Part shown: positions 47,618 through 62,765 of the stretch, piece after piece
Position numbering within the stretch: the first letter of the stretch is position 1
How the letters are laid out: each line of letters starts with the position of its first letter
Assembly (NCBI GenBank): GCA_964588955.1
Contig: CAZPQJ010000007.1
Location: 3,128-67,127, forward strand
Source: an uncultured Gammaproteobacteria bacterium
GTDB lineage: Bacteria; Patescibacteriota; Patescibacteriia; UBA9934; CAMTUG01
Direction: 5' to 3'
Length of the DNA stretch: 64,000 bases
Position numbers and translations under genes: made by a program
Notes under the pieces: generated by a model
The model's input: only the letters and a program-made list of their open reading frames with translations
Told to the model about the DNA's origin: nothing
Database searches by the model: none

Positions 47618-47619
47618 AC

Positions 47620-47760: not shown

Positions 47761-49282
47761 TGACTTTCTCTTCCTCGCCTAACACCGCCACAAATCCTGC
47801 GTACATCCACAAGTAAATGGCTAGCGATCGCACTTCAAAAAAGGTCGCTAAGAACGCGTTGAGGGCAACAGCAATCATGGCACCAGCAAATCCAAAAGCC
47901 AGTGAGCAGATGAACGGATCTTTGCTCGCGCGCCCCACACGCAGAGCGTAGAAAAACAAGGCCAAGTACATCCACAAGAAAAATCCTATGCCAAGCGTGC
48001 CCGTTTCTCCCCAAATCGAAAACCAGTTATTGTCGATGTACCCCGCCGTTCCATATACGCCAAACGGCAAGCCAAGCGTGTCGTACACTTTGGTGTTGTG
48101 AAACAGAATCGCTGTTCCCCCGCCGTACATGCCTGGCCCCCAACCAAAAATCGGCGCGGCTGGCACAACACTGGTTACCGTTTGCACAACCCAAAACAAT
48201 CGCCCAAGTCCGTAGTACTCCCCTTGCCAACGTTCGTACGAGAAGGCTTCAAAGAACCGTTCGGCAACGGTTTGCTGCGGGACGTCGATCAGGCTATTAA
48301 CGATAATGCCCGTGTAGGCCAAATAGCCAACAATCACGGCAGCGATCACTCCGAGTCCAATCAGCACTTTGCGGTCGCGTCGCACATACAAGGCGATGAA
48401 CAAAAATCCCAAGACAAATCCAAACCAGCTCGAACGCGAGTACGTCAAAATGAGCGCGGGAATGCCGAGCAAAAAAAGCCACGGCAGTTCTTTACGCTCC
48501 GCGCGCACCAATTTTTCATACAAAAAGCTAGCGGCGATGATCAGGAAAAAAGCGAGAAACACCCCCAGGCGGTCGTAACGCCCAAGCGTGGCAAACACGC
48601 GGCTGCCCGCGTCCCAAAACTGAATTGTCCCTTCGGTAATCTGAAACTCGCCAAAAGTGCGTGTTTCTGATGGAAGCAAAAAGGTATCCAAAGGCGTACC
48701 AACAACGGCTTGCGTGAGCGCGATCGCCGCCTGCAGACAAACCACACCAAAAAGTACCATCGTCAATCGGTGGACAAAGGCTTTGTCGGGGCGCAACATG
48801 ATGACCGCAAAGTAAATGAGAATGAAACGGATGATGGAGCGAATACCAAACAAGGCAATCGTCGGATCAACTAAATTGAAGACACTGGAGGCGCCAAGAG
48901 CGATGAGGAAAAAGATGAACGGCATGGTCAATGGATTGGCACGAAACCGTTCGCCGCGGCTGAGCATGCGAATAAGTGCCACGACAAAAATGAGGTACAC
49001 CAATCCTTCAGAAAAAAATCTGGCGAATAGATACAAGTCGTCTGGCATCCACTTGAGCAAAAACGGTTCAAATGGCAAATAGACAGACAAAAACGCCAAG
49101 CTCCAGAGTGGCTTCACGATGGTCAAAAAAAGAAAAACAATGGCGATGAGCGTGCCAAGCACAAACGTTGGCGACAAAAAGACCACGCCAAGCACAGCAA
49201 ACACGAGCACAGCCAAAACAGAAACAAGAATAAGCGGCATGCGCTCGTCGCTGTGCTTATACGCCTCCCGCAAGTTGACCAT
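47756..49282 (-). CDS. O-antigen ligase/polymerase (Wzy_C) family membrane protein
   Basis: About 12 TM helices are present. The signature LILTYSRSSWFGFVLGF (Wzy_C motif) is present. The start is uncertain, between 49240 and 49354. TATAAT lies 9 nt upstream of the ATG at 49282. Confidence 0.7.
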   Translation of the reverse strand: MVNLREAYKHSDERMPLILVSVLAVLVFAVLGVVFLSPTFVLGTLIAIVFLFLTIVKPLWSLAFLSVYLPFEPFLLKWMPDDLYLFARFFSEGLVYLIFVVALIRMLSRGERFRANPLTMPFIFFLIALGASSVFNLVDPTIALFGIRSIIRFILIYFAVIMLRPDKAFVHRLTMVLFGVVCLQAAIALTQAVVGTPLDTFLLPSETRTFGEFQITEGTIQFWDAGSRVFATLGRYDRLGVFLAFFLIIAASFLYEKLVRAERKELPWLFLLGIPALILTYSRSSWFGFVLGFLFIALYVRRDRKVLIGLGVIAAVIVGYLAYTGIIVNSLIDVPQQTVAERFFEAFSYERWQGEYYGLGRLFWVVQTVTSVVPAAPIFGWGPGMYGGGTAILFHNTKVYDTLGLPFGVYGTAGYIDNNWFSIWGETGTLGIGFFLWMYLALFFYALRVGRASKDPFICSLAFGFAGAMIAVALNAFLATFFEVRSLAIYLWMYAGFVAVLGEEEKVI

Positions 49283-49338: not shown

Positions 49339-49449
49339 TAAGAATCTCTCGCACCCCTTCAGGAAGATCTCCCTTCAGGGCGCGTTGGCGGAGGTCGGTC
49401 CCGCTCTCTTGATACTCGACCTACAGCGGGACTTCTCCTCGCTGGATGC

Positions 49450-51042
49450 CTACTTCCAGTAGGCGTTGATGTAGGCGCCGTCGTTGGCGCCCGTCTTGGA
49501 GCCGTCGCCGTCGTCATCGGTCGAAACCGGGACGGCGAAGAGCGGAGCCTCGTCGTCGCGGTAGAGGTTGCCCACCACCGCGAACTCGTAGACGCCGTCG
49601 CCATCCGTGTCGCCGATGTTGGCGGCCCCCCATTGGACCTCGGCCCCGTCGAAGTACTCGACCTGGAGCACTTCGAACCCCGTGGGGAACTCCATCGGCT
49701 CGGAGACGATCTCGGTGGTCAGCACCCCGAAGTCGGCAGTGGCGATCACGGTCCACTCGAGGGTGTCCCAGCTCCAGGACCAGATCTGCCCCCCGTAGAA
49801 GCCCTCAGGGAGCTCCCAGGTGACGATCGAGAGGCCGTCGTCGATCTCCGTGCCGGTGTCGGCGGTATCGGCGTCGACAGCCGTGTCGGAGTCCTCGGTC
49901 CCGACGCCCGTGCCCGCGGTGTCCGCCGCGGAGTCGATGCCGGTCTCGACGGACCCGGTGGCCGTGTCGACCGTGCCGGTGTCGGTGGCCGTGTCGGAGT
50001 CGACCGCGGTGTCGGCCTCGGCGGTGTCGCTGTCCGCGACCGCGCCGGAGTCCGAGTCGACGAGCACGATACCGGAATCGCTCCCGGTGTCCGTGTCGCT
50101 GTCGACGCCGGTGTCGATCGCGCCGGTGTCGGTGTCCTCGGGCAGACAGTCGTCGCCCTCGTCCACCTGGCCGTCGCAGTCGTTGTCGATCTTGTCGCAC
50201 TCCTCGACGGCGCTCGGGTTGATGGCCTCCGCGTTGTCGTCGCAGTCGATCGCGCCGCTGACGGTGGTGAAACCGTCGCCGTCACAGTCGTTGTCGACGC
50301 ACGGGTCTTCCTCCGCGGAATCCGCCGCGGTGTCGGTGTCCCCGGTGCCGCCGGAGTCGACGGTGCCGGAGTCTTCGGGCTCGGCGCCCGTGTCGACGAC
50401 CTCGCAGCCCTCGTCGACCAGCCCGTCGCAGTCGTCGTCCCGCTCGTTGGAGCAGGTCTCGACCGCACCGGGGTTGACCGACTTGTAGTCGTCGTCACAG
50501 TCGCCCGGGAGGCTCGCGTCGGCGCACTCGGCGCCTTCACAGAACCCGTCGCCGTCGTTGTCGTATTCGCCGACCACGGTGCCGCTGTCAGCGTCCGTGT
50601 CGGAATCGGTGTCGGTGTCCGCGTCCGAATCCGTGTCGGCATCCGTGTCCGAGTCCGCATCGGTGTCGCTGTCGGAATCCGAATCGGTGTCCGAGTCCGT
50701 GTCAGCGTCCGTGTCGGAATCGGTGTCGGTGTCCGCGTCGGAGTCGGTGTCCGTGTCCGCCTCGCCGGTATCGACACTGCCGCTGCCGGCCGTGTCGACG
50801 ATCTCGCCGGTGTCGGTGTCCGTGCCCGAGTCCGTGTTGGTGTCCACGATCCCCGAGTCTTCCCCGGAGTCCGTCTCGACCGTTCCCGTCTCGGTGTCCG
50901 CCGTGTCGACCGGGGCGCTGTCGCCCGTGTCGATCTCGCCCGTCTCCCCCTGCTCGACGCTGCCGGTGTCGGCGACATCGTAGTCGAGGTCGATCGGGTT
51001 GCTGTCGCAGCCGACGAGGATCAAGCTGATGATCAGGAACAT
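49450..51042 (-). CDS. Lipoprotein with acidic (DTD/DSD)n tract and MopE-like Asp/Cys-rich 'putative metal-binding' repeats
   Basis: The lipobox is LILVGC. It is followed by tandem DxDxDGDGxxxxxDCDDxxxxxxPGAxExCxxxDxDCDG-type units and a W-rich C-domain. GC is ~67%. Confidence 0.7.
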   Translation of the reverse strand: MFLIISLILVGCDSNPIDLDYDVADTGSVEQGETGEIDTGDSAPVDTADTETGTVETDSGEDSGIVDTNTDSGTDTDTGEIVDTAGSGSVDTGEADTDTDSDADTDTDSDTDADTDSDTDSDSDSDTDADSDTDADTDSDADTDTDSDTDADSGTVVGEYDNDGDGFCEGAECADASLPGDCDDDYKSVNPGAVETCSNERDDDCDGLVDEGCEVVDTGAEPEDSGTVDSGGTGDTDTAADSAEEDPCVDNDCDGDGFTTVSGAIDCDDNAEAINPSAVEECDKIDNDCDGQVDEGDDCLPEDTDTGAIDTGVDSDTDTGSDSGIVLVDSDSGAVADSDTAEADTAVDSDTATDTGTVDTATGSVETGIDSAADTAGTGVGTEDSDTAVDADTADTGTEIDDGLSIVTWELPEGFYGGQIWSWSWDTLEWTVIATADFGVLTTEIVSEPMEFPTGFEVLQVEYFDGAEVQWGAANIGDTDGDGVYEFAVVGNLYRDDEAPLFAVPVSTDDDGDGSKTGANDGAYINAYWK

Positions 51043-51339
51043 GTGGGTCTCCTTGCAGGCACTCTGGCCTGCCATGGGTTCACGCTTTCAGGAACGTCTC
51101 AAACGCACAAACGTGGATTGCGCTCGAGAAAAGGGAGGAGATTCGGCTCCTTTGTCCTAGTTCCGCAACGATTTACCATCATCACGAAACAGGAAAATAT
51201 AGCATAAAAATGGGGTTTTGTCAATGGTACATGGCCAATATTGGCCAAAAAATGCCATTAAACGCGAAGACGCCGCCCGAGGAGTGAACCTGGGCGGACG
51301 TCGTTGGAGGTCAGGGCCCGGTCGGGTTGGTAGAAGCGG

Positions 51340-52857
51340 CTAGGGGGCGGTGATCATGCGGGAGTAGTCGCCGTCGCCGTCGGGGTCGACCAGGGTGACG
51401 GAGTTGGGCACCCCGTCCGTGCTGGAGTGGATGCTGGCCGAGGCGTCGTCGGCGAGCGAGGTGCCGTCCGGGAAGTAGGCGTCGACGGTGGCGCTGTCGC
51501 TGCCGCCGAGGCACAGGTCCATGGTGAAGGCGAAGTACCAGGAGGTGCCGCCGAGGAAGCTACTCGAGACCGTCACCCCGACCACGCCTTCCGGGGACCA
51601 CTCGCCGCTGAGCGCCGAGCCACCCCCGGTGACTTCGGCCACGAACGAGTCGGGCTGGCCGTTGTTGCTGTTCAACTCGACCAGGAACTCGCACGGATCC
51701 TCGTCGACGCTACCGTCACAGTCGTTGTCGAGGCCGTCGCTGCCCTTGTCGGCGGCGCCGGGGTGGATGGTGTCGTCGGTGTCGTCGCAGTCGTCGTCGT
51801 TGTCGACGTAGTCGGAGGGAGCCGTGCAACTCGTGAAGGTGTCACTCGGGTCGCCGTAGCCGTCCTCGTCGCCGTCGTAGTAGCGGGTGACCTCGTCGAC
51901 CGCGCGGTCGTGGATGTCGCCGTCGCAGTCGTTGTCCACGCCGTCGGTGGCGCAGGTCTCCGGGGCGCCGGTGTAGGTGGCGGCGTCGTAGTCGTTGCAG
52001 TCGAGGGTGTTGTCGACGAAGCCACCGGGCGCCTCGCAGCCTTCGGTGGAGGAGCTGGCGTTGCCCTGGCCGTCGGCGTCGACGTCGGCGTAGAAGGGAC
52101 TCATCACCCCCTCGTCGACGCTCTCGTCACAGTTGTCGTCGACGCCGTTGCAGGACTCGGGGGCACCGGGGTAGATGGTGCCGTCGTCGTCGTTGCAGTC
52201 GTCGGCGTTGGCCGACCACCCGGGGAAGGCCTCGCAGGCGAGGATCGTCGACGCGTTGCTGCCGTAGGTGTCGCCGTCGGCGTCGATGTAGATGGTGGTG
52301 TAGAGACCCTCCTCGTCCGTGTCGACCCAGGTGTCCCAGGTGTCGCAGTCGTTGGGCTGACCGTCACAGACCTCCGGCGCGCCGGGGTAGATCCAGGCGT
52401 TGTCGTCGTCGCAGTCCCAATGGAACTCGCTCGGGTCGCCGTCACCGTCCTCATCGTAGTAGTCGTCGTCGGTGAGCTGCTCGTAGGCGTCGGAGAGCTC
52501 CCCGCCGTTGGCTGCCACGAACTCCTCGAGGGTGTCGATGTCGCAGGCCATGGCCACGCCGTTGCTGTCGTTGAAGCCGTCGCCGTCGCTGTCCATGGCC
52601 CAGATGTTGTCGACGTGGTAGGTGTCGGCGTCGTCGGCCGCGCCGTCGCAGTCGTTGTCGACTCCTCCGTCGCACAGCTCGACCGCCCCGGGGTGGATGT
52701 TGGGGTCGGCGTCATCGCAGTCCCCGCCGAGCTCGGTGTAGCTGTCTCCGTCGTCGTCGACGTAGTAGCCCTTCTCGGTCGAACCCGACTTGTCAGTGGG
52801 ATTGCGACCGGTACCGGCACAGGCCGCGAGGAGGAGGATGAGGGAAAGGTAGCGCAT
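51340..52857 (-). CDS. Lipoprotein with MopE-like Asp/Cys-rich repeats
   Basis: The lipobox is LLLAACAG. There are 5 or more DCDD..PGA.E.C.G.DNDCDG repeats. GC is high. Confidence 0.7.
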   Translation of the reverse strand: MRYLSLILLLAACAGTGRNPTDKSGSTEKGYYVDDDGDSYTELGGDCDDADPNIHPGAVELCDGGVDNDCDGAADDADTYHVDNIWAMDSDGDGFNDSNGVAMACDIDTLEEFVAANGGELSDAYEQLTDDDYYDEDGDGDPSEFHWDCDDDNAWIYPGAPEVCDGQPNDCDTWDTWVDTDEEGLYTTIYIDADGDTYGSNASTILACEAFPGWSANADDCNDDDGTIYPGAPESCNGVDDNCDESVDEGVMSPFYADVDADGQGNASSSTEGCEAPGGFVDNTLDCNDYDAATYTGAPETCATDGVDNDCDGDIHDRAVDEVTRYYDGDEDGYGDPSDTFTSCTAPSDYVDNDDDCDDTDDTIHPGAADKGSDGLDNDCDGSVDEDPCEFLVELNSNNGQPDSFVAEVTGGGSALSGEWSPEGVVGVTVSSSFLGGTSWYFAFTMDLCLGGSDSATVDAYFPDGTSLADDASASIHSSTDGVPNSVTLVDPDGDGDYSRMITAP

Positions 52858-52933
52858 CTCGATTGACTCCGTTGGGGTGATCTCCCTAAGAAAAGCACTT
52901 GGAAACCCAGTAACTTCCGCATGGGGAGATAGG

Positions 52934-52962
52934 GTTATACCCAGGAACTGTCAAATTGTCAA
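52934..52962 (-). promoter_or_regulatory. Candidate promoter (TTGACA-N17-TATAAC) for the 51340..52857 gene
   Basis: On the minus strand, ttgaca is at 52962..52957 and tataac at 52939..52934. Confidence 0.4.
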
Positions 52963-53018
52963 TATAATGAGGATCCCCTCAGGAAGAGCGCTTCCCGAGG
53001 GGATCTTGAGAAACCCGG

Positions 53019-54629
53019 TCAAAACTTGCCGTCACAGTCGTCGTCGTAGGCGTCGTCGGGCGCGTCGTAGGCGCCGGGGTGGGTGGAGTCGTTGCTGTCG
53101 TCGCAGTCGCCGTTGTGGTCGACGTAGCCTTCCGGACAGATTCCGTCCTTGGCGGCAATCCCGCCCACGGAGTCGCCGTAGCCGTCGTTGTCGGCGTCCG
53201 GGAAGCAGGCCACTTCGCAGACGTTGTCTTCGTCGATGACGCCGTCACCGTTGTTGTCGACGCCGTCGCACTCCTCGACGTCACTGCAGTCCGCGATCCC
53301 GTCGCTGTCGGCGTCGAAACCTTCGTCAACCTCATCATCGCAGTCGTCGTCGAGGCCGTTGCAGATCTCTTCCGCGTCGGGGTTGATCGCCGCGTCGGCA
53401 TCGTCACAGTCGCCGCTCTCCGCGATGTAGCCAGAGGGCGCGCTGCAGTTCTCGATGCTGTCGCGACTGTCACCGAAGCCGTCGTTGTCGCCATCGTAGT
53501 ACCAGGTGGTGGCTCCGGTGGCGTCGGACTCGTCGGTGGTGCCGTCGCAGTCGTTGTCCGCGCTGTCGCAGACCTCGCTCGCGCCGGGGTTGATCGTCGA
53601 ATCGCCGTCGTCGCAGTCGCCCTTGGCTTCGACGTAGCCGCTCGGGGCGGTGCAGGTCGTCTCGCTCTTGCGGGCGAGGCCGTACCCGTCGCTGTCCGCG
53701 TCGAGGTAGAACGTGGAAGTGCCCACGGCGCTGTCGGGATCGATCTCGCCATCGCAGTCGTCGTCGAGGCCGTTGCAGGTCTCGATCGCGTCCGGGTTCA
53801 CTTCCGCGCTCGTGTCGTCGCAGTCGCCCGCGTCCACCACGTAGCCCGAGGGCTCGTAGCAACTGACGACCGCGTCGCCCGGGTTGCCGAAGCTGTCACC
53901 GTCGTTGTCCGCGAACCAGGTCGGGGCACCGAAGGCGTCGCCCTCGTCGACGCTGCCATCGCAGTCGTTGTCGAGGCCGTCGCAGTACTCGGTAGCGCCC
54001 AGGTGCACGCCCACGTCGGCGTCGTTGCAGTCGTCGGCGTTCTCGACGTACTCCTCGGGCACGGAACAGGCCAGGGTGGAGGAACTCGCGTTCCCCTGCC
54101 CGTCGCCGTCCGCGTCTTCGTAGAACGTCAGCTCGACGCCTTCGTCGACGCCCCCGTCGCAGTCGTTGTCCGCACTGTCGCAGACTTCGCTCGCGCTCGG
54201 GTTGACGTCGCTGCGCGCGTCGTCGCAGTCGTTGGCGTTCACGACGTAGCTCGGGATCTCCACGCAGGTGGTGATCTCGATGCTGGCGTCGCCGTAGCCG
54301 TCGCCGTCGCCGTCGAAGTAGCGCGCGTCGCCATCGTCGCTCTCGCCATCGCAGTTGTCGTCCACGCCGTTGCCGCAGATCTCGGCCACGCCAGGGTTGA
54401 CGCTCGCGTTGTTGTCGTCGCAGTCGGCCTCAGCGCCGTAGCCGTCGCCGTCGTTGTCCGTGTCGACGACCCCACCGCTGTCGCTGTCGACGTTGGTGTC
54501 GCTGTCGTCGCCGCCGGTCTCGACGTTGCCGGTCTCTTCGACCGAATCGGCCGAGTCGACATCGTCCGAATCCCCGTTGTACGGGGGCAGGAACATGTCC
54601 ATGCAGGCACTCAAAAGGAGCAAGATCAC
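53019..54629 (-). CDS. Lipoprotein with MopE-like Asp/Cys-rich repeats
   Basis: The lipobox is LLLSAC. There are ~9 repeats of the form DADGDGxG....C.....YV....DCDD.....NPGA.E.C...DNDCDG. Confidence 0.7.
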   Translation of the reverse strand: MILLLLSACMDMFLPPYNGDSDDVDSADSVEETGNVETGGDDSDTNVDSDSGGVVDTDNDGDGYGAEADCDDNNASVNPGVAEICGNGVDDNCDGESDDGDARYFDGDGDGYGDASIEITTCVEIPSYVVNANDCDDARSDVNPSASEVCDSADNDCDGGVDEGVELTFYEDADGDGQGNASSSTLACSVPEEYVENADDCNDADVGVHLGATEYCDGLDNDCDGSVDEGDAFGAPTWFADNDGDSFGNPGDAVVSCYEPSGYVVDAGDCDDTSAEVNPDAIETCNGLDDDCDGEIDPDSAVGTSTFYLDADSDGYGLARKSETTCTAPSGYVEAKGDCDDGDSTINPGASEVCDSADNDCDGTTDESDATGATTWYYDGDNDGFGDSRDSIENCSAPSGYIAESGDCDDADAAINPDAEEICNGLDDDCDDEVDEGFDADSDGIADCSDVEECDGVDNNGDGVIDEDNVCEVACFPDADNDGYGDSVGGIAAKDGICPEGYVDHNGDCDDSNDSTHPGAYDAPDDAYDDDCDGKF

Positions 54630-54868
54630 GGGACCTCCAGGGTAGGATAATCTTCAAAACAGAGCAGGCCCCTATTTTGAAGATCGGTTGGGGAAAAGTG
54701 CTAATCGTTGCTTTTGGCCTGACTTATGCCCTTGTCAGTCCAAAAACACCTCTCAAATTAGCCTTGTTTTCCTTGTCCGCGAACTGTAGTTCTTATCACG
54801 ATAATCAAGAAACGTCAAGCAATTGCGCCTCCCCAGGGAGTACCCGGGGAGGCGCAAGCAGTCAGGGA

Positions 54869-56722
54869 CTAGCCGTCGATGATGCCGTCGCAGTCGTCGT
54901 CGAAGCCGTTGCAGGCGGCCTCAGGGGTGACACCATCGTCCCCCAGGCAGTCTTCGGCGCCCGGGTGAACCCCGGAGTCCTCGTCGCTGCAGTCGCCGTC
55001 GCAGACGGTGTAGCCATCGCCGTCCGCGTCAGTGGTGTCCGTATCCGGGTTGATACCGGCATCGTTATCGTCGCAGTCGTCGGCGTTGTCAACGTAACCT
55101 TCGGGCGCCACACAGGCGTCGTAGGTGACGCTCGCGTCGCCGAAGCCGTCGCCATCGGCGTCGGCGTAGAACGTGCTGGTGTCGATCGCGGAGTCTTCGT
55201 CCACGTCGCCGTCGCAGTCGTTGTCGACGCCGTCGCAGAGTTCGTCGGCGTCGGGGTTGATCAACGGATCCATGTCGTCGCACTCGGAGCACGCTGCGAA
55301 CCCATCGCCATCCGCGTCTTCGACCCCCACCGACCCATCGCAGTTGTAGTCGAGGCCAGCGTTACAGGCCTCGGGCGCGCCGGGGTAGTAGGCGGCATCG
55401 CTGTCGTCGCAGTCGTCGACGTTGTCGACGTAGCCCTCCGGCGCCACGCAAGCGTCGTAGGTGACGCTCGCGTCGCCGTAGCCGTCGCCGTCCGCATCGG
55501 CGTACCAGGTGCTCGCGTCGATCGCATCGTCCTCGTCCACGTCGCCATCGCAGTCGTTGTCGACCTCGTCGCAGAGCTCGTCGGCGTCGGGGTTGATGTC
55601 GACGTTGGAGTCGTCGCAGTCAGTGGTGGTTCGCGCGTAGCCAACGACGCTACCGCAGGAAATGATCGATCCAGAGGGATCGCTCGATCCGTAGCCATCG
55701 TCGTCAGCATCAAGGTAGAGCGGCACCGCGTCCAGCGCGGAGTACTCATCCGTCTCCCCGTCGCAGTCGTCGTCCTTGCCGTTGCAGTACTCGTCGGCGT
55801 CGGGGTAGATGGCTGCGTCGCTGTCGTTGCAGTCAACGTCGCTCGTGTAGCCGTCGCCGTCGAGATCGACAGGCGCGGTGTCGACGATCACGCCACTGTC
55901 ACCGGTGTCGGCCGTGTCGATCGTACCGGTGTCACCCGTGTCCGTGGTGTCGACGATCCCTCCGGTGTCGGTGTCGATCGCGGTGTCCACGGTGTCACCC
56001 GTGCCAGTGTCGCCGGTGTCGGCCGTGTCGACCGTACCGGTGTCGGTGTCCTCAAGCGGACAGATCTCGCCTTCGTCCACGTCGCCGTCGCAGTCGTTGT
56101 CCGCGCTGTCGCAGACTTCGGTGGCGCCGGGGTTGATGGCGTAGCTCGTGTCGTCACAGTCGTCCCCGTTGAAGACATACCCAATGGGGATGTCGCACTG
56201 CACCTGGATGGTCGAGGCGTCGCCGTAGCCGTCGTGATCCGCATCCTCGTACAAGGTGAACATGTCCTCGGCGGCGTTGTCGACATAGCCGTCGCAGTTG
56301 TCGTCGAGGTTGTTGCACGCCTCGAGCGCGCCGGGGTGAACGGCCGCGTCGGAGTCGTCGCAATCGTCGGACTCCAGCACCCAGGCTGCGCCATCGGAAG
56401 GCTGGCTGCAGCTTTCGTAGGCATCCTCGGTTTTGCCGTAGCCGTCGCCGTCGAGATCGAGGTACCAGGTACGTGTTCCCTCTTCGTCGACCTCGCCATC
56501 GCAGTCGTTGTCGACATCATCGCAGACTTCGGTGGCGTCCGGGTGGACGGCCGCATCGTTGTCGTCGCAGTCCTCGTCGGAACCGTAGCCGTCGCCGTCC
56601 GCGTCAAGCGCGGGCAGGCTGACGGAATCGTCAATCGCCGTCTCGTCGTTTCCGCCCTTCCCCGAGTCTTGCGGGAGGGGGCAGCCAGCGAGAAGAAACA
56701 GGAACAGGATGAAGGAACGCAT
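54869..56722 (-). CDS. Lipoprotein with MopE-like Asp/Cys-rich repeats
   Basis: The lipobox is LLAGC and the start is at MRSFILF. The C-terminus reads DCLGDDGVTPEAACNGFDDDCDG and is shared with the next gene. Confidence 0.7.
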   Translation of the reverse strand: MRSFILFLFLLAGCPLPQDSGKGGNDETAIDDSVSLPALDADGDGYGSDEDCDDNDAAVHPDATEVCDDVDNDCDGEVDEEGTRTWYLDLDGDGYGKTEDAYESCSQPSDGAAWVLESDDCDDSDAAVHPGALEACNNLDDNCDGYVDNAAEDMFTLYEDADHDGYGDASTIQVQCDIPIGYVFNGDDCDDTSYAINPGATEVCDSADNDCDGDVDEGEICPLEDTDTGTVDTADTGDTGTGDTVDTAIDTDTGGIVDTTDTGDTGTIDTADTGDSGVIVDTAPVDLDGDGYTSDVDCNDSDAAIYPDADEYCNGKDDDCDGETDEYSALDAVPLYLDADDDGYGSSDPSGSIISCGSVVGYARTTTDCDDSNVDINPDADELCDEVDNDCDGDVDEDDAIDASTWYADADGDGYGDASVTYDACVAPEGYVDNVDDCDDSDAAYYPGAPEACNAGLDYNCDGSVGVEDADGDGFAACSECDDMDPLINPDADELCDGVDNDCDGDVDEDSAIDTSTFYADADGDGFGDASVTYDACVAPEGYVDNADDCDDNDAGINPDTDTTDADGDGYTVCDGDCSDEDSGVHPGAEDCLGDDGVTPEAACNGFDDDCDGIIDG

Positions 56723-56870
56723 CGTTTTCTCCGGTCTTGGTGGGTGGGTCATACGGCTCTTTTGGTTTAGAGCCGACAAAGAAACCTACACGTTAAAGAC
56801 CAAAAAGTCAAGGGTTAAGACGTCATTACGCCTCCCCAGGGAGTACCCGGGGAGGCGTAAAAGTCAGGGA

Positions 56871-57473
56871 CTAGCCGTCCTTCTTGCCGTCACAATCGTC
56901 GTCGATGCCGTTGCAGCCTGCCTGCGGGGTGACCCCGTCATCGGCCAGGCAATCTTCTGCGCCCGGGTACATGCCGTTGTCCGCGTCGTTACAATCGCCG
57001 GCGCAAGTCGTGTAGCCATCGCCGTCGCTGTCGAAGCCTTCATCAACGCCGCCGTCGCAGTCGTCGTCGAGGCCGTCGCAGATCTCCATGGCGTTCGGGT
57101 TGATGACCGAGGAGGTGTCGTCACAGTCGGTGTTGTCGACCACGTAGCCCGCGACTTCCTCGCAGGAGGTGACCATCGCGCCCGCGTCCCCGAAGCCGTC
57201 GGCGTCGAGGTCGAGGTAGTAGAGGGTGGCGTCCGTGGCCGCGTTGTCCACTTGGCCGTCGCAGTTGTCGTCGAAGCCGTTGCAGACTTCTTCTGCCCCG
57301 GGGTAGACGCTCGCGTTGTCATCGTCACAGTCGTCGCCGAACACGAACCCGTCGTGGTCGCTGTCGATCTGATCGACGCCCGCTGTGGAATCGACCACTT
57401 CCGACGCCGTGTCGACATCGTTGAGTTGGATCGACGCAGAGGAACAGGCCAGCAAGAAGATAATCAAGGACAT
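56871..57473 (-). CDS. Small lipoprotein with MopE-like repeats (paralog of 54869..56722)
   Basis: The lipobox is LLACSS. The C-terminus reads DCLADDGVTPQAGCNGIDDDCDG. A ~50-nt 3' region including a terminator hairpin is shared with 54826..54877. Confidence 0.7.
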   Translation of the reverse strand: MSLIIFLLACSSASIQLNDVDTASEVVDSTAGVDQIDSDHDGFVFGDDCDDDNASVYPGAEEVCNGFDDNCDGQVDNAATDATLYYLDLDADGFGDAGAMVTSCEEVAGYVVDNTDCDDTSSVINPNAMEICDGLDDDCDGGVDEGFDSDGDGYTTCAGDCNDADNGMYPGAEDCLADDGVTPQAGCNGIDDDCDGKKDG

Positions 57474-57719
57474 GGATGATCTCCGGTAGAGATATGGATG
57501 CCATTTGCAGGTCTCTTGTAATCAAGAGCCAACAAAGAAACCTACACGCCGGAAGCCGAAAGGTCAAGGGTGGTAATACGTGGATTTTCAAAAAACGCCA
57601 GCTGCAAGGCGCGGGGAAGCCGGCGAAGGAGCCGTATCTAAACATACGGCGACAAGACGGCGGGGCCCCGCAACACAGCAGATGGCGGAATTTTGGAAAT
57701 CCATAATCCAAAATATGAA

Positions 57720-57757
57720 GCGCCCCTGAAGAAGAGAGAGCTTCCTTCAGGGGCGCA
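57720..57757 (-). terminator. Terminator hairpin (CCCCTGAAG palindrome) after the 57824 gene
   Basis: gcgcccctgaag-aagagagagcttc-cttcaggggcgc is followed on the sense strand by a T-rich tract. Confidence 0.55.
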
Positions 57758-57823
57758 AAGAGTTTCTTCGTCGCGCCCCCTTGGGAAGATTCCTCTTCTT
57801 CAGGGGCGCCTCGTTGTGCCGGG

Positions 57824-59158
57824 CTAGTAGCGCGTGGACCAGATCCAGTCACCGATGATGTAGGCGATCAACTCGCCCCCGTCTTCGACACCCGACTCCT
57901 TCGAGTAGGTGTAGTAGACCTCGGAGACGCCGGACCCCGAGGAGTCCGTGCAGACCCAGGAGATTTCTCCCCGGATCTCCACGTCGTCGGTGCCCTCGCC
58001 GGTCGACTCGACCGAGAAGTTGACGCCGTCGCCGTTGACGCAACCCGCGTTGATGCGGGCGGCCTCACCGGACTCCATCGTGTACACCTCGGAGATGGTG
58101 TCGGTGCTCGACGCGGTCGTGCCCAGGGACGAATCCCAGGACCAGCCAACGCTCGTCGCGACCTCCGCCTCGGTGTACATGGCCGCGCACTCCTCGGGCG
58201 AGACCCAGGTGAACGTACAGGTGTACGTCTCCGAGCCCGAGCCCGTGTCGCCGGTGTCGGTCGTGTCCTCGATGCAGGCGGCGGGGTTGCCCTCGCCGTC
58301 GTCACCGCACACCTTCCCGGCGGACGCGCAGTCGTAGGACTCGACCGCGGTGTGCTCCTCGTTGCAGTAGTACGTCACATCCCCGACGCACTTGGGGTAC
58401 TCGGAGCAGTCGATGCCCGACCCAGTGTCGCCGGTGTCCTCGCAGGCGTCGCCCTCGTCCACGCTGCCGTCGCAGTCGTTGTCGATCCCGTCGCACTTCT
58501 CGGTGGCGCCGGGGTTGACCTCGGGGTTGGCGTCGTCGCAGTCGACATCGTCGTAGCCGTCGTCGTCCGCATCGTCGTCGGCACAGGCGTCACCTTCGTC
58601 GGAGTGGCCATCACAGTCGTCGTCGAAGCCGTTGCAGGTCTCGGTGGCGCTGGGGTTGATGGCCCAGTTCCCGTCGTCGCAATCGCCTTCGTCCTCGGTG
58701 TAGCCGTCGCCGTCCGCGTCGTCGTCGGTGTCGCAGTCCTCGTCGATCGAGCCGTCGCAGTCGTTGTCCACGCCGTTGCCGCAGATCTCGGACGCGCCGG
58801 GGTAGACGCTGGCGTCGCTGTCATTGCAGTCGACACCTTCGCCGTAGCCGTCGTTGTCGACGTCCGTGTCGGTCTCGCAGACTTCATCGACGTCGCCGTC
58901 GCAGTCGTCGTCGAGGCCGTTGCACTTCTCGGTCGCGCCGGGGTAGATGGCGGAGGAGGTGTCGTCGCAGTCAACGTCGTCGCCGTAGCCGTCGCCGTCG
59001 GCATCGACCGGACCGGTGTCCGTGTCGGTGTCGCCGGTCTCGGCCGTCTCGCCGGTCTCCGCGGTCTCGTGGGAGTCCGCGGTGTCGACCGAGCCGGTGT
59101 CTCCGACGTCGGTACGGATGTTGTTGGCAAGCCCGCAGGCCATCAGGGTGATCAACAT
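57824..59158 (-). CDS. Lipoprotein with MopE-like repeats and a Cys-rich C-terminal domain
   Basis: The lipobox is LMACG and the start was chosen at MLITLMACG. There are 6 repeats, followed by a C-domain rich in C/W/Y. Confidence 0.65.
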   Translation of the reverse strand: MLITLMACGLANNIRTDVGDTGSVDTADSHETAETGETAETGDTDTDTGPVDADGDGYGDDVDCDDTSSAIYPGATEKCNGLDDDCDGDVDEVCETDTDVDNDGYGEGVDCNDSDASVYPGASEICGNGVDNDCDGSIDEDCDTDDDADGDGYTEDEGDCDDGNWAINPSATETCNGFDDDCDGHSDEGDACADDDADDDGYDDVDCDDANPEVNPGATEKCDGIDNDCDGSVDEGDACEDTGDTGSGIDCSEYPKCVGDVTYYCNEEHTAVESYDCASAGKVCGDDGEGNPAACIEDTTDTGDTGSGSETYTCTFTWVSPEECAAMYTEAEVATSVGWSWDSSLGTTASSTDTISEVYTMESGEAARINAGCVNGDGVNFSVESTGEGTDDVEIRGEISWVCTDSSGSGVSEVYYTYSKESGVEDGGELIAYIIGDWIWSTRY

Positions 59159-59194
59159 GGGGTGATACTCCGCGGCTTCAAGCCGCGCTCGCAC

Positions 59195-59432
59195 TGTTAC
59201 GGGAACCGGAAACTCACACAGGATTGTGCGTCCGTCGTCGTTGTCCAGGAATTGAACCTTTCGGACGGACGGAAGTTGGGGAACAGGATTGGGAGATAAA
59301 GATGGAGAAAGAGGGAGAAAAATGGATATTGGGAAAAAATTCTTTTCCCTTTCTCCTATCTCCTATTTTCTCCTACTTTTTCTCTATCCACCCAATTCCA
59401 CAACTTCCATCCGCCTATACAGATTCAATCTC
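59195..59432. repeat. Upstream module copy 1 (~240 bp): conserved 5' leader hairpin plus GGAGAAA-rich palindrome, directly upstream of the 57824..59158 gene
   Basis: It runs ggaaccggaaactcacacaggattgtgcg-tccgtcgtcgttgtcc...gaacctttcggacggacggaagttgggg, then ggagataaagatggagaaagagggagaaaaatggatattggg...ttcttttccctttctcctatctcc, then ccacaacttccatccgcc. It matches 61069..61292. Confidence 0.7.
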
Positions 59433-59534
59433 AGGTAACTGATCTTGTAAAGAACCCTCGCAGACCACGAACGTTTCATGATCTCTGAGAGTGGGTCCTC
59501 GGACTGTGTGCCGAGAACCCATCGAACGTCGAAC

Positions 59535-61028
59535 CTACTCCTCCTCGGACTCGGTCTGCTTGGCGCGGGCGGCGTCGGCTTCGGCCTTGGCTTGCGCCTG
59601 GGCTTCCAGCCGCGCCCTCTTCTGGTCGGCGAACTCGAGGCGATCACTGCCGACGATCGCCATCTTCAAGGAGAAGATCGCGCCGACACCCGCCGTGTCA
59701 TCGGTCCGCTCGTTGTGCTCCAAGGTGATGATCTGGACCCCCGTGTTGTAGGTGACCTGACCGGCCGCCTCGAACGCGAAGTTCCCGACCCGGAAGTCCC
59801 CGAAGCCGCTGAGGCCATAGAGGACTCCGCCGACCTGGGACTCCATGAGGGCGTCCTGGTCGAACAGACCGACCTGGACACCGTGCAGACCGATCACCCC
59901 GCCGATGCCGATCTCGTTGATCGGCTTCGCGTAGACACTGAACGTGCCCGCGTAGCCCAACGAGTCACCGGACAGGATCGCGCTGTAGCCACCGAACGCG
60001 GCACGGGCGTAGCGGTGATCGACGCCGAGGTGCGCTACCAGACCCGGGCCGATGAGCCCGGTGTCGAGGACGACACCCCCACCGATGCCGAGGGTGGGCC
60101 AGAACGCGCGGTTGTGCGCGTCCTTGAGCTCGGTGGTACGGACGTAGGCGGTGTCCGCGGTCTTGCGGACGGCGTCCACGATCTCGAGGGATCCCTTGAT
60201 CTCCTCGATCCGCAGGGAGTTCTCGGTCTGGAGCCCATCGATCTTCCCCTCGGCCGTCGCGAGACGACCGTTGGTCTTCACGAGCTCGCTCTGCTCGGCC
60301 TTGCCGTCGAGGCGCTTGCCGAGCAAGATCGCCGCGGCGAAGGACGAGTCCGTGGCGGAGGAGCAGTACACACTGTCTCCGCTCACCACGGTCCAGACCC
60401 CTTCGGCTCGGTTGATGGTGTACCCGTCCGGGACGCTCTGCGTGGCGGCGTAGGCGAACCCCACCGTCTCGCAGAAATCGACCCGCTGCATCTCCGCGAG
60501 GATCTTGGAGTGCTCGTCCACGGTGGCCGAGACCTTCTTCACCTCGCCGGCGGCCCAGTTGGCGGTGCGCTTCGCGTCCATCGCATCGACGACGTCCCGG
60601 TTGCCCGAGTCGGCGTCGATCGCCACCTCACACTTGAGGACGTCGGAGTCGAAGTTGAAGACGAAGCCGTCCTTCTCGCACACCGGCCGTCCGGCCTTGT
60701 CGCTCCACACCAGGCCAGAGACGGAACCGAAGTTCCCTCCGCCGATGATGGGGCGCTCGAGGTCGGACTTCCGCCAGTGGCGGATGGTGCCGTGGACGCG
60801 GTAGGACAACTCGACGGCGGCCCGCAGGCTCACCGGCTCGTCGGCCTTGGCGTCGCAGTCCGTCTTCGGGCACTCGTCCTTCTTCGGCTCGGCCTTCTTC
60901 TCGTCCGCGGCGACCGTGGTCGTCGTGGTCGTGGCCGTCGTGGCGGTGGTGGTGGCCGGGGTGGTCTTCGCGCTGGGGTTGGCGCCCGCAAACGCGGGAG
61001 CGGAAACGAGAACCAGGGAGATCAACAT
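59535..61028 (-). CDS. Secreted protein with a Thr-rich linker and a Gly-rich beta-strand (porin/OMP beta-barrel-like) C-region
   Basis: A signal peptide reads MLISLVLVSAPAFAGA. (T/A)n and CPKTDCD follow. Alternating Gly/hydrophobic segments and an Ala/Glu-rich helical tail follow. GC is high. Confidence 0.55.
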   Translation of the reverse strand: MLISLVLVSAPAFAGANPSAKTTPATTTATTATTTTTTVAADEKKAEPKKDECPKTDCDAKADEPVSLRAAVELSYRVHGTIRHWRKSDLERPIIGGGNFGSVSGLVWSDKAGRPVCEKDGFVFNFDSDVLKCEVAIDADSGNRDVVDAMDAKRTANWAAGEVKKVSATVDEHSKILAEMQRVDFCETVGFAYAATQSVPDGYTINRAEGVWTVVSGDSVYCSSATDSSFAAAILLGKRLDGKAEQSELVKTNGRLATAEGKIDGLQTENSLRIEEIKGSLEIVDAVRKTADTAYVRTTELKDAHNRAFWPTLGIGGGVVLDTGLIGPGLVAHLGVDHRYARAAFGGYSAILSGDSLGYAGTFSVYAKPINEIGIGGVIGLHGVQVGLFDQDALMESQVGGVLYGLSGFGDFRVGNFAFEAAGQVTYNTGVQIITLEHNERTDDTAGVGAIFSLKMAIVGSDRLEFADQKRARLEAQAQAKAEADAARAKQTESEEE

Positions 61029-61068
61029 GTCAGACTCCGTTGCGGCATTCTAGCCGCGTTGAGCACTC

Positions 61069-61292
61069 TTGGAACCGGGAAACTCACGCAGAATTGCGCG
61101 CCCGTCCGTTGTGTCCTTTTGGGTATTGAACCTTTCGGACGGACGGAAGTCGGGGTGGGAAGATAAAATAGGAGAAATGAGGAGAAAGAAGGATATTGGG
61201 GAAGACTTTCTCCCTTTCTCCTATTTTCTCCATCTTTTTCTTTTTATCCTTCCAAGATCCACAACTTCCATCCGCCACGATCAATTCAATCC
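61069..61292. repeat. Upstream module copy 2 (matches 59195..59432), directly upstream of the 59535..61028 gene
   Basis: The layout is the same three parts. The GGAGAAA palindrome is ataggagaaatgaggagaaagaaggatattggggaagactttctccctttctcctattttctcc. Confidence 0.7.
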
Positions 61293-61330
61293 AATCTATT
61301 TTGAGTAGGTTCAGTTGTAATGAACACCGA

Positions 61331-61725
61331 TAAGGTTCGACATAGCTCAGAAACGAGGAGGAGGCGTTCTGAACGACATCAAACCGTATCGAAGGTCATT
61401 TTTAGGGACAATTCGCAGATCTTGCGAACGCCTAAAAGTAGCAGGAAATTGGGTTTTTGTCAAGGGGTTTGTGGAGAAAATGGGAAAAATAGGAGAAATA
61501 AGGAGAAAATGGGAGAAAAATACCAAAACAAAACAACGTCCGCTTTATCGACCTGAGAATCACCTGTCGTGATGAGGAGGAGGCATCATGACCGTGCGGT
61601 CTCAGGCCGGCAAAAGGGGCGTTGTGGCGGGCACCTTACCAAAGCCCCGAGGGGGCGTCAAGAAGGTTATAAACAATAGAAAAATAGGAGAAATAAGGAG
61701 AAAGTTGGAGAAAAGTGACAAAAGC
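61331..61725. repeat. Tandem ~190-bp duplication (two units) ending in GGAGAAA-rich tracts
   Basis: Unit 1 runs gaggaggaggcg ... gtcaagggg ... aaaataggagaaataaggagaaaatgggagaaaa. Unit 2 runs gaggaggaggca ... gtcaagaagg ... aaaataggagaaataaggagaaagttggagaaaa. The shared DNA is read in different frames by the two small track ORFs. It is therefore judged non-coding. Confidence 0.5.
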
Positions 61726-62090
61726 TATTTTTTCGAAGCCAAATCTTTTGTCGAGAAAATATATCTATTTAACAACACTTGAACCGCCCGTAATTGTGCG
61801 CGCAACAACTCTGCGTCTATAATCTGAACTTTTCCCCGCTCCAATAAGAGGTCCGTCCAATGCAGTGCTTCAATGAGAGATCCACGCGCATTGTAGTTAA
61901 ACTTGTTGCGATCAAGAAAATGAAATCTTCCAAACCCCTCCGCGATATTCGCGCCAATGGAATCAATAGCAGAAATCCACTGATCCCCAATCACTTTCTT
62001 TGTTTGCCAATCGAATTTATCATAAAGAAGCCAGGCGCATTTTGATATTTGCCTGGCCTCACGGTAAACAGCGAGATCATATAAATCCAT
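61725..62090 (-). CDS. Four-helix-bundle protein (23S rRNA-intervening-sequence protein family)
   Basis: 121-aa ORF with the family-typical IANNIAEG-like core (GANIAEGFGR) and length. Confidence 0.7.
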   Translation of the reverse strand: MDLYDLAVYREARQISKCAWLLYDKFDWQTKKVIGDQWISAIDSIGANIAEGFGRFHFLDRNKFNYNARGSLIEALHWTDLLLERGKVQIIDAELLRAQLRAVQVLLNRYIFSTKDLASKK

Positions 62091-62132
62091 ATCCCCTTTC
62101 TCTTTTCTCCTTCTTTCTCCTACTTTTTCCCT

Positions 62133-62765
62133 CTATCCTTCATGAATCAACTGATGTCGACGACGAATGCGTTCTGCTTTTAACATGACAAAGGCTACGC
62201 CCGCCAAGCCACCAAGAACGGCTCCGGCGAAGGCGTTCAAGGGAATGTTGGGTCGCACCGGCCAGCGGGAGTTTAAGGGGTCATCGACTAATTGAATGCT
62301 GATCGATCCACCAGAGGTGTACTGCCAACCTTCGGTCACAATCACGCTCGAAAGCGCGCGGGCAATGAGTTCCGCTTGGGCAACATCTGGGTGATAGACA
62401 GCGATGGTGAGCAACCCTGTGCCGCGCGTTACCGTAGCGGCGACGGTTTTACCCCAAGTCTTGCGGCGCTTGTTGGCATCGGTGGGAAAGTAATCGCGGT
62501 CGATTTGACTAGAGGTAGCCATCACTTTGTCGAAGAAGGTGGTGGTGTAAATGACGTTGGTAATGTCTTCGGCCACGCGCTCGGCCGAACGACTGGCGGT
62601 GTAGGCATCAACGGTGCCAAGTTGTTGAATGATCAGCAAGCGTACGGTGGAGCTATAGGCCAACGGACGCAACAGAGAAAGCACCACACCCAACAAAATA
62701 CCAACAGCGGCCATGATGACAATGCTGTGCCAAAAATTTAACAAGGCGGAAGTATGGCGGGACAT
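62133..62765 (-). CDS. Polysaccharide chain-length determinant (Wzz/CapA/YveK-like co-polymerase)
   Basis: Two TM helices are present, at the N-terminus and at the C-terminus (GGLAGVAFVML). A periplasmic domain lies between them and a basic tail follows. Confidence 0.6.
   Translation of the reverse strand: MSRHTSALLNFWHSIVIMAAVGILLGVVLSLLRPLAYSSTVRLLIIQQLGTVDAYTASRSAERVAEDITNVIYTTTFFDKVMATSSQIDRDYFPTDANKRRKTWGKTVAATVTRGTGLLTIAVYHPDVAQAELIARALSSVIVTEGWQYTSGGSISIQLVDDPLNSRWPVRPNIPLNAFAGAVLGGLAGVAFVMLKAERIRRRHQLIHEG

Follow-up and report, generated by a model that had tools for sequence, protein, structure and literature searches.

Composition of the seven-gene block

Within a window of 64,000 nucleotides from contig CAZPQJ010000007.1 (the window is the whole stretch of DNA that was analyzed, and positions refer to it unless a related locus is named), seven consecutive minus-strand genes, I1 to I7, occupy positions 49450-61028 and form a block of ~11.7 kb with an unusual base composition. 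I1 to I6 encode acidic lipoproteins and I7 a secreted protein, and the block lies between a gene for a Wzz-like protein and one for a Wzy_C membrane protein. The guanine plus cytosine (GC) content along the window went from ~0.50 to 0.65-0.70 between ~49.3 and 61.1 kb, and then back to 0.44-0.46. The GC content at third codon positions (GC3) of I1-I7 was 0.84-0.93 (0.85-0.93 with corrected starts), against 0.43-0.69 for the other 36 open reading frames (ORFs) of the window (Mann-Whitney p=3e-8), whereas GC1 and GC2, the corresponding values for the first and second positions, were raised just mildly. Since GC1 and GC2 were near normal and GC3 was extreme, the anomaly is one of codon choice. 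The initial annotation, made from the sequence alone, had described a high-GC block amid flanks of ~50% GC, which the GC profile and the GC3 contrast bear out, and the comparison of codon usage that it called for revealed a usage in the block radically different from that of the remaining ORFs.

The six spacers that separate I1-I7 had a GC content of 0.47-0.54, in keeping with the ~50% previously noted for them. Over their first 25 codons the block genes already reach a GC3 of 0.72-0.96, and over their last 25 one of 0.84-1.0; the GC content was ~0.5 in the 150 nt before the genes, and after them only terminator hairpins were GC-rich. The composition jump coincides with the start and stop codons of the block genes, and high-GC coding sequence (CDS) and backbone-like spacer alternate seven times across 11.7 kb. 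On the plus strand every block gene is shadowed by a near full-length antisense ORF, at 49633-51207, 51427-52866, 53079-54650, 54677-56770, 56709-57479, 58352-59299 and 59478-61166. These ORFs appear because a GC3 of ~0.9 makes the antisense codons start with G or C, and they are no evidence of genes.

The block is conserved in related genomes

The Wzy_C protein was used as the anchor in a scan of the GTDB species representatives, which yielded 19 loci with Wzy identities of 35-72%, nearly all of them labelled Candidatus Uhrbacteria or Patescibacteria; a metagenome scan added 27 contigs, some of which correspond to the same organisms as the genome loci (related loci carry L numbers). A block of GC3-rich genes was present upstream of Wzy_C in 13 of the 14 genome loci with at least 1 kb of upstream sequence, and in 13 of the 15 metagenome contigs with enough upstream sequence. 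As in the window, the block of the relatives consists of lipoprotein genes, mostly with PF11617-type units, and the recurrent order is Wzz-like gene, secreted coiled-coil/Gly-rich protein, Cys-rich lipoproteins, Wzy_C gene and GT4 glycosyltransferase gene, with the Wzz-like gene bordering the block in L007, L009, L010, L012, L013 and L020.

The backbone GC3 of the relatives that show the jump spans ~0.2 to 0.8. The block GC3 (backbone GC3 in brackets) was 0.92 (0.55-0.60) in L001, 0.88-0.95 (0.52-0.63) in L002, 0.67-0.86 (0.32-0.38) in L004, 0.79-0.97 (~0.5) in L005, 0.75 (~0.3) in L008, 0.79-0.93 (~0.65) in L009, 0.90-0.93 (~0.75) in L010, 0.77-0.84 (0.30) in L013 and 0.64-0.79 (0.37) in L018. 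The Uhrbacteria contig L020, which was reached via a protein match, carries, in this order, a PDZ protease, a GNVR protein, three PF11617 genes and the next gene, and the GC3 of the PF11617 genes was 0.90-0.94 against 0.60-0.80 in the backbone. The slot still encodes lipoproteins in those relatives that are most distant and lowest in GC, where its genes have a GC3 of 0.44-0.58 against 0.20-0.29 in the backbone. The slot holds a TSP3-like protein in L041 and plain beta-rich lipoproteins in L034, L036 and L038. A collagen-like (GxxGxx) gene, partly masked by N, was observed inside the GC-rich block of L013 (5560-7062), a relative of 40% GC.

The same architecture was found in more than 20 independently assembled contigs, which confirms the earlier view that the block is a genuine part of the genome and not an assembly chimera. 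The claim that the block had been inserted by a recent lateral acquisition did not hold, because it occupies the same Wzz-Wzy_C interval across the Uhrbacteria-like genomes.

Anatomy of the codon shift

Every codon family shifts in the block. AAG is used at 95-100%, GAG at 77-91%, and TTC, TAC, ATC and AAC at 95-98% (33-57% in the backbone for these four), with CTC exceeding CTG and GTC exceeding GTG; the backbone prefers TTG, AAA, GAA, TTT, ATT and GAT. At 4-fold sites the frequencies were A.15, C.30, G.31 and T.24 in the backbone and A.02, C.63, G.29 and T.06 in the block. Relative to each locus's own backbone, the log-odds of C over T and of G over A were up by ~1-4, mostly ~2, in 14 loci whose backbone GC3 ranged from 0.23 to 0.75, and those of C over G by only ~0-1. 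The view of an excess limited to C-ending codons, with G unchanged, was tempered, since the G/A log-odds rise too, and a Corallococcus MopE gene also leans to C. When block and backbone spacers were compared, the GC content was 0.50 vs 0.45 in the window, 0.44 vs 0.41 in L004, 0.60 vs 0.57 in L010 and 0.48 vs 0.38 in L018; derived from these values, the block spacers shift by just 0.1-0.6 log-odds units.

The GC3 was alike (0.89-0.96) in the repeats, in the non-repeat unique domains and in I7, and therefore the shift is not an effect of repeats or of amino acid composition. PF11617 genes elsewhere have a backbone-like GC3, as observed in Chitinophagaceae (0.31), Flavobacteriales (0.34-0.37), Corallococcus and a Myxococcota metagenome-assembled genome (MAG) of 47% GC. 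The window also encodes, at 1955-3133, a protein with a bacterial TSP3 calcium-binding repeat and a GC3 of 0.58, a backbone value, so that acidic Ca-binding repeats per se need no GC-rich codons here. Literature searches retrieved no description of such a CDS-limited codon excess in the Candidate Phyla Radiation (CPR).

A divergent tRNA-Pro pair (3702-3777 and 3993-4067; anticodons CGG and GGG) lies at the other end of the window, with 215 nt between the two genes. The GGG anticodon reads CCC, a codon favoured in the block.

Residence and turnover of the block

The I1 orthologue of L002 (3534-4976) also lies beside Wzy and has the same parts, namely a lipobox, an SD/TD tract, two units, an acidic linker and a C-terminal domain. 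Between these two genomes the C-terminal domain of I1 is 37% identical, against 68% for Wzy, and the closest protein to I3 by identity is its L002 homologue (52%). Judged from these sequences, the rapid divergence of the block proteins fits exposure to partners or phages. At residues identical between the window and L002, the same codon was used at frequencies of 0.70 (0.71 expected) and 0.67 (0.65 expected), although the GC3 of the compared block genes was 0.91-0.94 in both genomes; the flanking genes were near synonymous saturation at a GC3 of 0.50-0.60. Since codons agree only at chance level, the synonymous sites have fully turned over, yet GC3 stays high.

No integrase or transposase ORF was detected among the genes of the interval, and a search for flanking repeats gave only chance 8-11-mers common to both borders. 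No tRNA lies near the block, the only ones of the window being those at 3.7-4.1 kb. Thus, among the features of genomic islands, a deviant composition was found, and deviation in the non-coding parts, a patchy distribution and mobility features were not. The paralogues within the block are just 28-48% identical, which makes them an old family and not a recent amplification; the proposal of a tandemly amplified family is kept in the former sense and rejected in the latter. The block is a resident, fast-diverging surface module, in which protein sequence and gene content turn over, and position, promoters and codon usage are conserved.

Genes, promoters and leaders

The features of the locus are collected in Table 1. 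Likely starts were used for I1 (51042), I4 (56722) and I6 (59158). A short hydrophobic signal peptide ending in [LVI][ASTVILM][GAS]C was taken as the lipoprotein signal, and by this pattern I1-I6 all show it, with lipoboxes LVGC, LAAC, LSAC, LAGC, LLAC and LMAC, respectively, at residues 9-15; that of I6 has an unusual M at position -2. Hence, the six lipoprotein signal peptides of the initial annotation stand, with two lipoboxes revised to LLAC and LMAC by the choice of starts. Its statement that the proteins are built almost entirely of repeats is valid for I3, I4 and I5; I1, I2 and I6 have unique C-terminal domains of 120-190 aa, for which no counterparts were detected in 49 related loci, except for that of I1 in L002. 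I1 starts with the signal peptide MFLIISLILVGC, followed by an SD/TD dipeptide tract, two PF11617 units, an acidic linker and the unique domain. I4 and I5 have a C-terminal module and the leader motif GTGTAGGTTTCTTTGTyGGCTCT in common. I7 starts with the signal peptide MLISLVLVSAPAFA and continues with a Thr/Ala tract, a Cys-containing N-domain, a helical coiled-coil-like middle, a Gly-rich strand region (~310-460) and a charged helical tail.

Table 1. Coordinates and main traits of the block genes, their spacers and the adjoining genes
Feature	Position	Strand	Description
GT4 glycosyltransferase	45732..46940	-	downstream of Wzy_C; conserved partner of the locus
Methyltransferase	46943-47686		between the GT4 and Wzy_C genes
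Wzy_C membrane protein	47756..49282	-	O-antigen ligase/polymerase/O-oligosaccharyltransferase (O-OTase) superfamily; Wzy_C E 4.5e-10; directly downstream of the block
I1	49450..51042	-	acidic lipoprotein, 530 aa, isoelectric point (pI) ~4, GC3 0.93
Spacer I2-I1	51043..51339	-	terminator hairpin, near-consensus promoter TTGACA-17-TATATT with TG, 5' leader; GC ~0.51
I2	51340..52857	-	acidic lipoprotein, 505 aa, 5 PF11617 stretches, unique C-terminal domain, GC3 0.93-0.94
I3	53019..54629	-	acidic lipoprotein, 536 aa, nearly all ~68-aa units, 7 PF11617 stretches, 31 Cys, GC3 0.90
Spacer I4-I3	54630..54868	-	GC-rich terminator hairpin, promoter-like TTGACG...GTGATAAGAAC, leader with TCAGGCCAAAAGCAACG; GC 0.49
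I4	54869..56722	-	acidic lipoprotein, 617 aa, 7 PF11617 stretches, 25% Asp, GC3 0.84
I5	56871..57473	-	short acidic lipoprotein, 200 aa, 2-3 units, GC3 0.85
I6	57824..59158	-	acidic lipoprotein, 444 aa, 4 PF11617 units, unique Cys-rich C-terminal domain, GC3 0.92
I6 upstream module	59172..59415	-	GGAGAAA palindrome, CCGTCCGTCCGAAAGGTTCAAT box, two small hairpins, GGAG, ATGTTGATC
I7	59535..61028	-	secreted orphan protein, 497 aa, GC3 0.92
I7 upstream module	61042..61276	-	paralogue of the I6 upstream module
Four-helix-bundle (4HB) protein	61725..62090	-	PF05635 / TIGR02436; between the Wzz-like gene and I7; GC3 0.43, backbone-like
Wzz-like protein	62133..62765	-	GNVR / CspC-MPA1, chain-length-determinant-like; upstream border of the conserved arrangement

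Read by eye, every block gene has its own promoter-like element (TTGAC at -35 and a TG-extended -10) and its own terminator hairpin. A consensus scan for promoters and terminators gave no overall enrichment over shuffled sequences, and one near-perfect promoter upstream of I1. In the spacer I2-I1, TGCTATATTTT and adjoining blocks are kept in L002, and TTGAC..GTGATAAGAAC and TCAGGCCAAAAGCAACG of the spacer upstream of I3 are likewise kept there (780-1015). The I6 and I7 upstream modules are 75% identical over 255 nt, through the first three codons (ATGTTGATC), and the two proteins are otherwise unrelated. Their two small hairpins differ by seemingly compensatory changes (GCGCAA..UGCGU vs GCACAA..UGUGU). 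A riboswitch is not claimed for this leader, which folds only weakly better than shuffled sequences (z -2.2 and -0.8), and Rfam detected at the gathering level two tRNAs only, and at a relaxed level just spurious miRNA-like hairpin matches on palindromes.

GGAGAAA arrays with a 10-nt period were present in one truly internal spacer (I6-I7, 59304-59367), upstream of I7 (61171-61225, 61473-61512 and 61687-61707) and outside the block (62104-62114, 62788-62875 and 30466-30492). The reported occurrence of the same palindromes inside and outside the block is thus correct for these sites; the palindrome at 47635-47761 has a sequence unlike the GGAGAAA arrays. The arrays often form long purine/pyrimidine palindromes flanking genes, and look like an intergenic repeat specific to this genome, either REP-like or acting as a bidirectional terminator. 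Between the 4HB gene and I7 the minus strand of 61330-61700 holds two tandem units with tiny ORFs only, each with a GGAGAAA array, a TTGAC promoter-like box and ~100-150 nt with GCCTCCTCCTC (an anti-Shine-Dalgarno-like CCUCC motif), and from these traits the units may be small RNAs.

The PF11617 lipoproteins and the orphan protein I7

When the proteins were searched with PF11617 (Cu-binding_MopE), I1-I6 scored 53.8-239.5 bits, above the curated cut-off of 27 bits, with 2-7 stretches each and E values of 2e-14 to 2e-72, as predicted from their repeats in the initial annotation. That the family occurs mainly in Myxococcota had to be corrected, because the top matches also come from Bacteroidota, Pseudomonadota and Patescibacteria. 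NCBIfam gave weak matches only, of the I1 SD/TD tract to the staphylococcal Sdr/Clf SD-repeat models. I1-I6 have a pI of ~4, 19-25% Asp, at most 1.1% each of Lys and Arg, 2.5-6.5% Cys and 0-1.2% His, with 5-15 DxDxDG motifs per protein. The C and D columns of the four-Cys/Asp-rich unit were invariant or nearly so when I5 was aligned with 72 homologues. The AlphaFold2 model of I5 had a mean predicted local distance difference test (pLDDT) score of 81, above 90 for residues 35-145, and almost no regular secondary structure, and it gave no significant fold match in the PDB. Such a confident but irregular model is as expected for a repeat held by disulfides and bound cations.

Binding of Ca or Cu had been suggested for these proteins. 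Only residues 1-48 of MopE* (PDB 2VOV) align with one unit (E 7e-4), and the block proteins have the low His content given above; copper binding is unsupported, and the PF11617 family name is no guide to copper here. Judged from the dense acidic motifs, Ca2+ binding by I1-I6 is plausible.

The Wzy_C gene adjoins genes for S/T/D-rich exported proteins, with TD/SD/TG tracts in I1, I4 and I6. The SD-repeat adhesins of staphylococci are glycosylated by the GT4 enzymes SdgA and SdgB. PglL-type O-OTases carry a Wzy_C domain and often adjoin their own substrates (PMC3643930). By analogy, glycosylation of the block proteins by the neighbouring Wzy_C and GT4 enzymes is plausible.

No homologue of I7 was found in the word-index search, the genome scan, the metagenome scan, or with a profile of I7 plus two weak matches. 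These two were the only ones in an exhaustive HMMER scan (E 2e-7 and 5e-6), both to unannotated proteins, and a local hidden Markov model (HMM) of I7 gave one marginal match, the L013 counterpart (E 0.03). I7 had no Pfam or NCBIfam match, PF11617 included, and its AlphaFold2 model was unusable (pLDDT 30). However, a protein built like I7 is encoded directly after the Wzz-like gene in L007, L009, L010, L013, L018 and L020; it has a signal peptide, a coiled coil and a Gly-rich strand domain, to which some members add a Cys domain or a single PF11617 unit. Some of the Gly-rich C-terminal domains of the counterparts in L010 (5047-6462), L007 (1336-2355) and L018 (1057-2595) end in aromatic residues (...AGFVF, ...RARF); the L010 and L007 counterparts end in F, and I7 itself ends in the charged helix. 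One counterpart had an OMP_b-brl match below the threshold (E 0.006). Such traits are unexpected in the Patescibacteria, a phylum generally taken to be without an outer membrane. Since proteins of the same build follow the Wzz-like gene in the relatives, I7 is a fast-evolving lineage-specific protein and no marker of a diderm donor. The diderm donor inferred in the initial annotation rested on I7, which has no detectable diderm relative and whose counterparts sit in other Uhrbacteria.

Neighbouring genes and the host

The Wzz-like, Wzy_C and GT4 neighbours bear out that the block lies within a cell-envelope polysaccharide locus. The likely start of Wzy_C is MVNLRE, backed by the alignment with L001 and L002. 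The Wzz-like protein is 47-54% identical to its counterparts in L007, L009, L010, L012 and L013, and it was also called in L020. L018 has a similar small gene (83-451, read from its N-terminal sequence alone) at the relative place of the 4HB gene. A diversity-generating retroelement, which the 4HB (Avd-like) gene had brought to mind, was discarded, as the window has no ORF for a reverse transcriptase of the YxDD type and no template/variable repeat pair. The flanks also encode PBP2, a class II ribonucleotide reductase, further GT4 enzymes, a PDZ protease and a DUF5667 protein. Genes for Lgt and LspA, the lipoprotein machinery, do not occur in the window.

Because the Wzy_C-matched loci with specific labels are Candidatus Uhrbacteria or 'Patescibacteria group', the host is, by sequence affiliation, an Uhrbacteria-like member of the Patescibacteria (CPR). 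Its closest relatives come from the Hainich H41 groundwater metagenomes. L003, L005, L010, L011, L013, L014, L018 and L019 are TPA MAGs titled 'uncultured Gammaproteobacteria bacterium', yet they have an Uhrbacteria-type locus and gene order, and these labels are probably wrong. At 35784-39482 the window encodes a secreted protein of 1232 aa that matched neither Pfam nor NCBIfam and whose GC3 (0.69) is the highest of the backbone, which has counterparts in L002, L007 and L010 by shared N-terminal sequence, and which is a candidate major surface or S-layer protein.

Origin of the codon excess

We consider it probable that the block is a resident, lineage-wide module whose CDS-limited codon excess is kept by selection on synonymous sites against mutational bias. 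This reading starts from what was observed, i.e., the conservation of the block, the restriction of the excess to CDS, its constant shift and the synonymous saturation, to which selection as the force, its target, and a function in a coat, in Ca2+ binding and in glycosylation would be added. I7 and the six lipid-anchored, acidic, disulfide-rich PF11617 proteins would then make up a module of an Uhrbacteria-like cell-envelope glycan locus, in which these proteins would most likely form a variable Ca2+-loaded surface coat, perhaps glycosylated by the adjoining Wzy_C and GT4 enzymes, that would serve the envelope or the attachment to partner cells. In their genes, codons ending in G or C, those ending in C above all, would be favoured over those ending in A or T by an odds factor of ~e^2. 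Translation- or mRNA-level selection would thereby oppose the mutational bias of each genome, and such a mutation-selection balance would give a roughly constant log-odds shift across lineages. The candidate targets are the accuracy or speed of decoding by G34-tRNAs, in proteins whose critical Asp, Asn, Cys and Tyr codons number in the hundreds, and also mRNA stability or structure, or frame maintenance. A bolder and rather tentative version holds that the genes use a specific 'codon dialect', in which strong synonymous selection, independent of genome GC, controls or protects translation or mRNA, for example through decoding by unmodified G34 tRNAs (Asp, Asn, Tyr, His) with partner-dependent queuosine, or through codon-dependent mRNA stability. 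If true, it would give the reduced, slow-growing CPR their first clear example of intense selection at the codon level.

Several points weigh against selection as the explanation, which we infer by exclusion. L012 and L031 have no GC3 anomaly, and the most remote relatives, which have the lowest GC, carry genes of other families than PF11617 in the slot and show a smaller shift. Even the window, L002 and L001/L023 differ in gene content, and no orthologues were detected for I7 and for most C-terminal domains, so that cassette replacement also happens. The block spacers are 3-14 points richer in GC than the backbone spacers, behind which there may be some regional effect, or simply the GC-rich terminator hairpins. 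Translational selection is expected to be weak in CPR bacteria. The one control that is likely well expressed, a putative ribosomal protein L25 (identified by its N-terminal sequence), has a backbone-like GC3 (0.35 in L004 and 0.29 in L008), which argues against the ordinary codon bias linked to expression.

The excess could also have been imported. We regard as unlikely, although it deserves attention, a hot spot in which the Wzz-Wzy interval repeatedly takes genes from GC-richer donors, either Patescibacteria or high-GC phyla, with GC3 partly ameliorated afterwards. Close relatives do vary in gene content and distant ones hold other families (L041, L013, L034, L036 and L038), low-GC genomes have a lower block GC3, which partial amelioration would produce, there are Uhrbacteria of high GC (L010, L020 and L031), and the 4-fold usage of the Corallococcus MopE gene (C.49, G.37) is near that of I7 (C.57, G.34). 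However, imports would carry their own spacers, and the spacers are backbone-like in seven loci; the promoter/leader blocks of two of them are common to L002, and leader modules are duplicated within the block (I6/I7 and I4/I5). Moreover, the excess persists in high-GC genomes (0.93 vs 0.75 in L010 and 0.92 vs 0.74 in L020), so that no anomaly-free source was seen, the synonymous sites are saturated between the equally GC-rich genes of the window and L002, no mobility genes or flanking repeats were detected, and the closest protein is an L002 homologue with 52% identity. A single recent transfer of the seven-gene island from a high-GC diderm, e.g., a member of the Myxococcota, which was the reading of the initial annotation, is very improbable. 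It would account for a codon usage radically off the backbone, for the abundance of PF11617 proteins in Myxococcota and, to a degree, for the sub-threshold OMP_b-brl match of one I7 counterpart, but the conserved synteny across the clade contradicts it, as do spacers of backbone-like GC with arrays found elsewhere in the backbone, a promoter for each gene, the divergence of the paralogues, an I7 that has no relative in any genome or metagenome search, and the lack of an integrase, a tRNA target or flanking repeats.

Gene conversion biased towards GC, or a mutational bias of the region, arising for instance from recombination at a diversifying surface locus or between repeats, would explain the shift mainly as one of S over W bases with a modest extra of C over G, as is seen, at a locus that is repeat-rich and variable and whose spacers are slightly GC-enriched. 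We nevertheless find this improbable, since a force of ~e^2 would push the spacers from 0.45 to ~0.86 GC and 0.50 was observed; in addition, the jump follows the start and stop codons, GC3 is as high in I7, which is non-repetitive, and in the unique C-terminal domains as it is in the repeats, and the 4HB gene, between the Wzz-like gene and I7, keeps a backbone-like GC3. The joining of genes from a high-GC organism to a Patescibacteria contig by assembly or binning, which an abrupt change in composition in a metagenome-assembled source might suggest, has a negligible probability given the seven CDS/spacer alternations, an architecture repeated in contigs from unrelated studies and assemblers, and backbone-type repeat arrays inside the block. 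Selection on synonymous sites in a resident module is therefore the explanation that we retain.

Significance

The lipoproteins of the block come from a known family, PF11617, but evolve in an unusual regime, in which a surplus of G/C-ending codons, confined to the CDS, is conserved throughout a CPR clade. It is routine to take compositional islands for recent horizontal gene transfer (HGT), and here an island of textbook appearance is an old resident; the practical lesson is that GC3-based HGT detectors will mislabel such genes. The anomaly is re-created in genomes of ~30 to 62% GC, which provides a natural experiment on synonymous selection against mutation bias, biased conversion and transfer, in a phylum in which selection on codons is presumed negligible. 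The acidic Cys-rich lipoproteins, a family both conserved and hypervariable, and the orphan secreted protein beside the Wzy_C and GT4 genes are also prime candidates for the surface structures with which episymbiotic CPR bacteria would face partners and phages.

Comparison with known systems

Like horizontally acquired islands and O-antigen or capsule cassettes, the block is a compositionally deviant, variable gene set within a Wzz/Wzy/GT locus; unlike them, it is fixed in place clade-wide, deviates in its reading frames only, lacks mobility features and shows an equal odds shift in genomes of very different GC. Sharp and colleagues reportedly described in 2005 a selected codon bias of highly expressed genes towards C-ending NNY codons, which the TTC, TAC, ATC and AAC usage of the block resembles. 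However, at ~2-4 log-odds the shift would be stronger than that reported in fast growers; in the block it also extends to AAG, GAG, CAG and every 4-fold box, and the putative L25 gene of relatives does not have it.

The copper site of the methanotroph proteins MopE*/CorA consists of two His and a kynurenine (an oxidised Trp) in a beta-sandwich (PMC3423442, PMC3912023). This site lies outside the stretch that aligns with the block proteins, which have no such domain and almost no His. Thrombospondin type-3 and bacterial TSP3 repeats share with I1-I6 the dense DxDxDG motifs and Cys residues and an irregular predicted fold, whereas the block proteins have no TSP3 HMM match and their Ca2+ binding is putative. 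As in PglL-type loci and the SdgA/SdgB system, Wzy_C and GT4 genes adjoin those for S/T/D-rich secreted proteins; the difference is that the scores are far below the family cut-offs, and no feature separates an O-OTase from a ligase or polymerase here.

The closest likeness in sequence is to the 'MopE-related' PF11617 proteins of Myxococcota, Bacteroidota and others, which share the ~68-aa unit YxDxDGDGYG...C..P.GYV....DCDD.....PGA.E.CDG.DNDCDG..DE with its four conserved Cys, and which are 37-52% identical to I3 over most of its length. Those proteins have Lectin_C, fibrinogen_C, type IX secretion system (T9SS) tail or LTD partner domains, which the block proteins lack. In contrast, I1-I6 are short CPR lipoproteins, encoded in a conserved slot of a glycan locus by genes with a GC3 far above that of their backbone.

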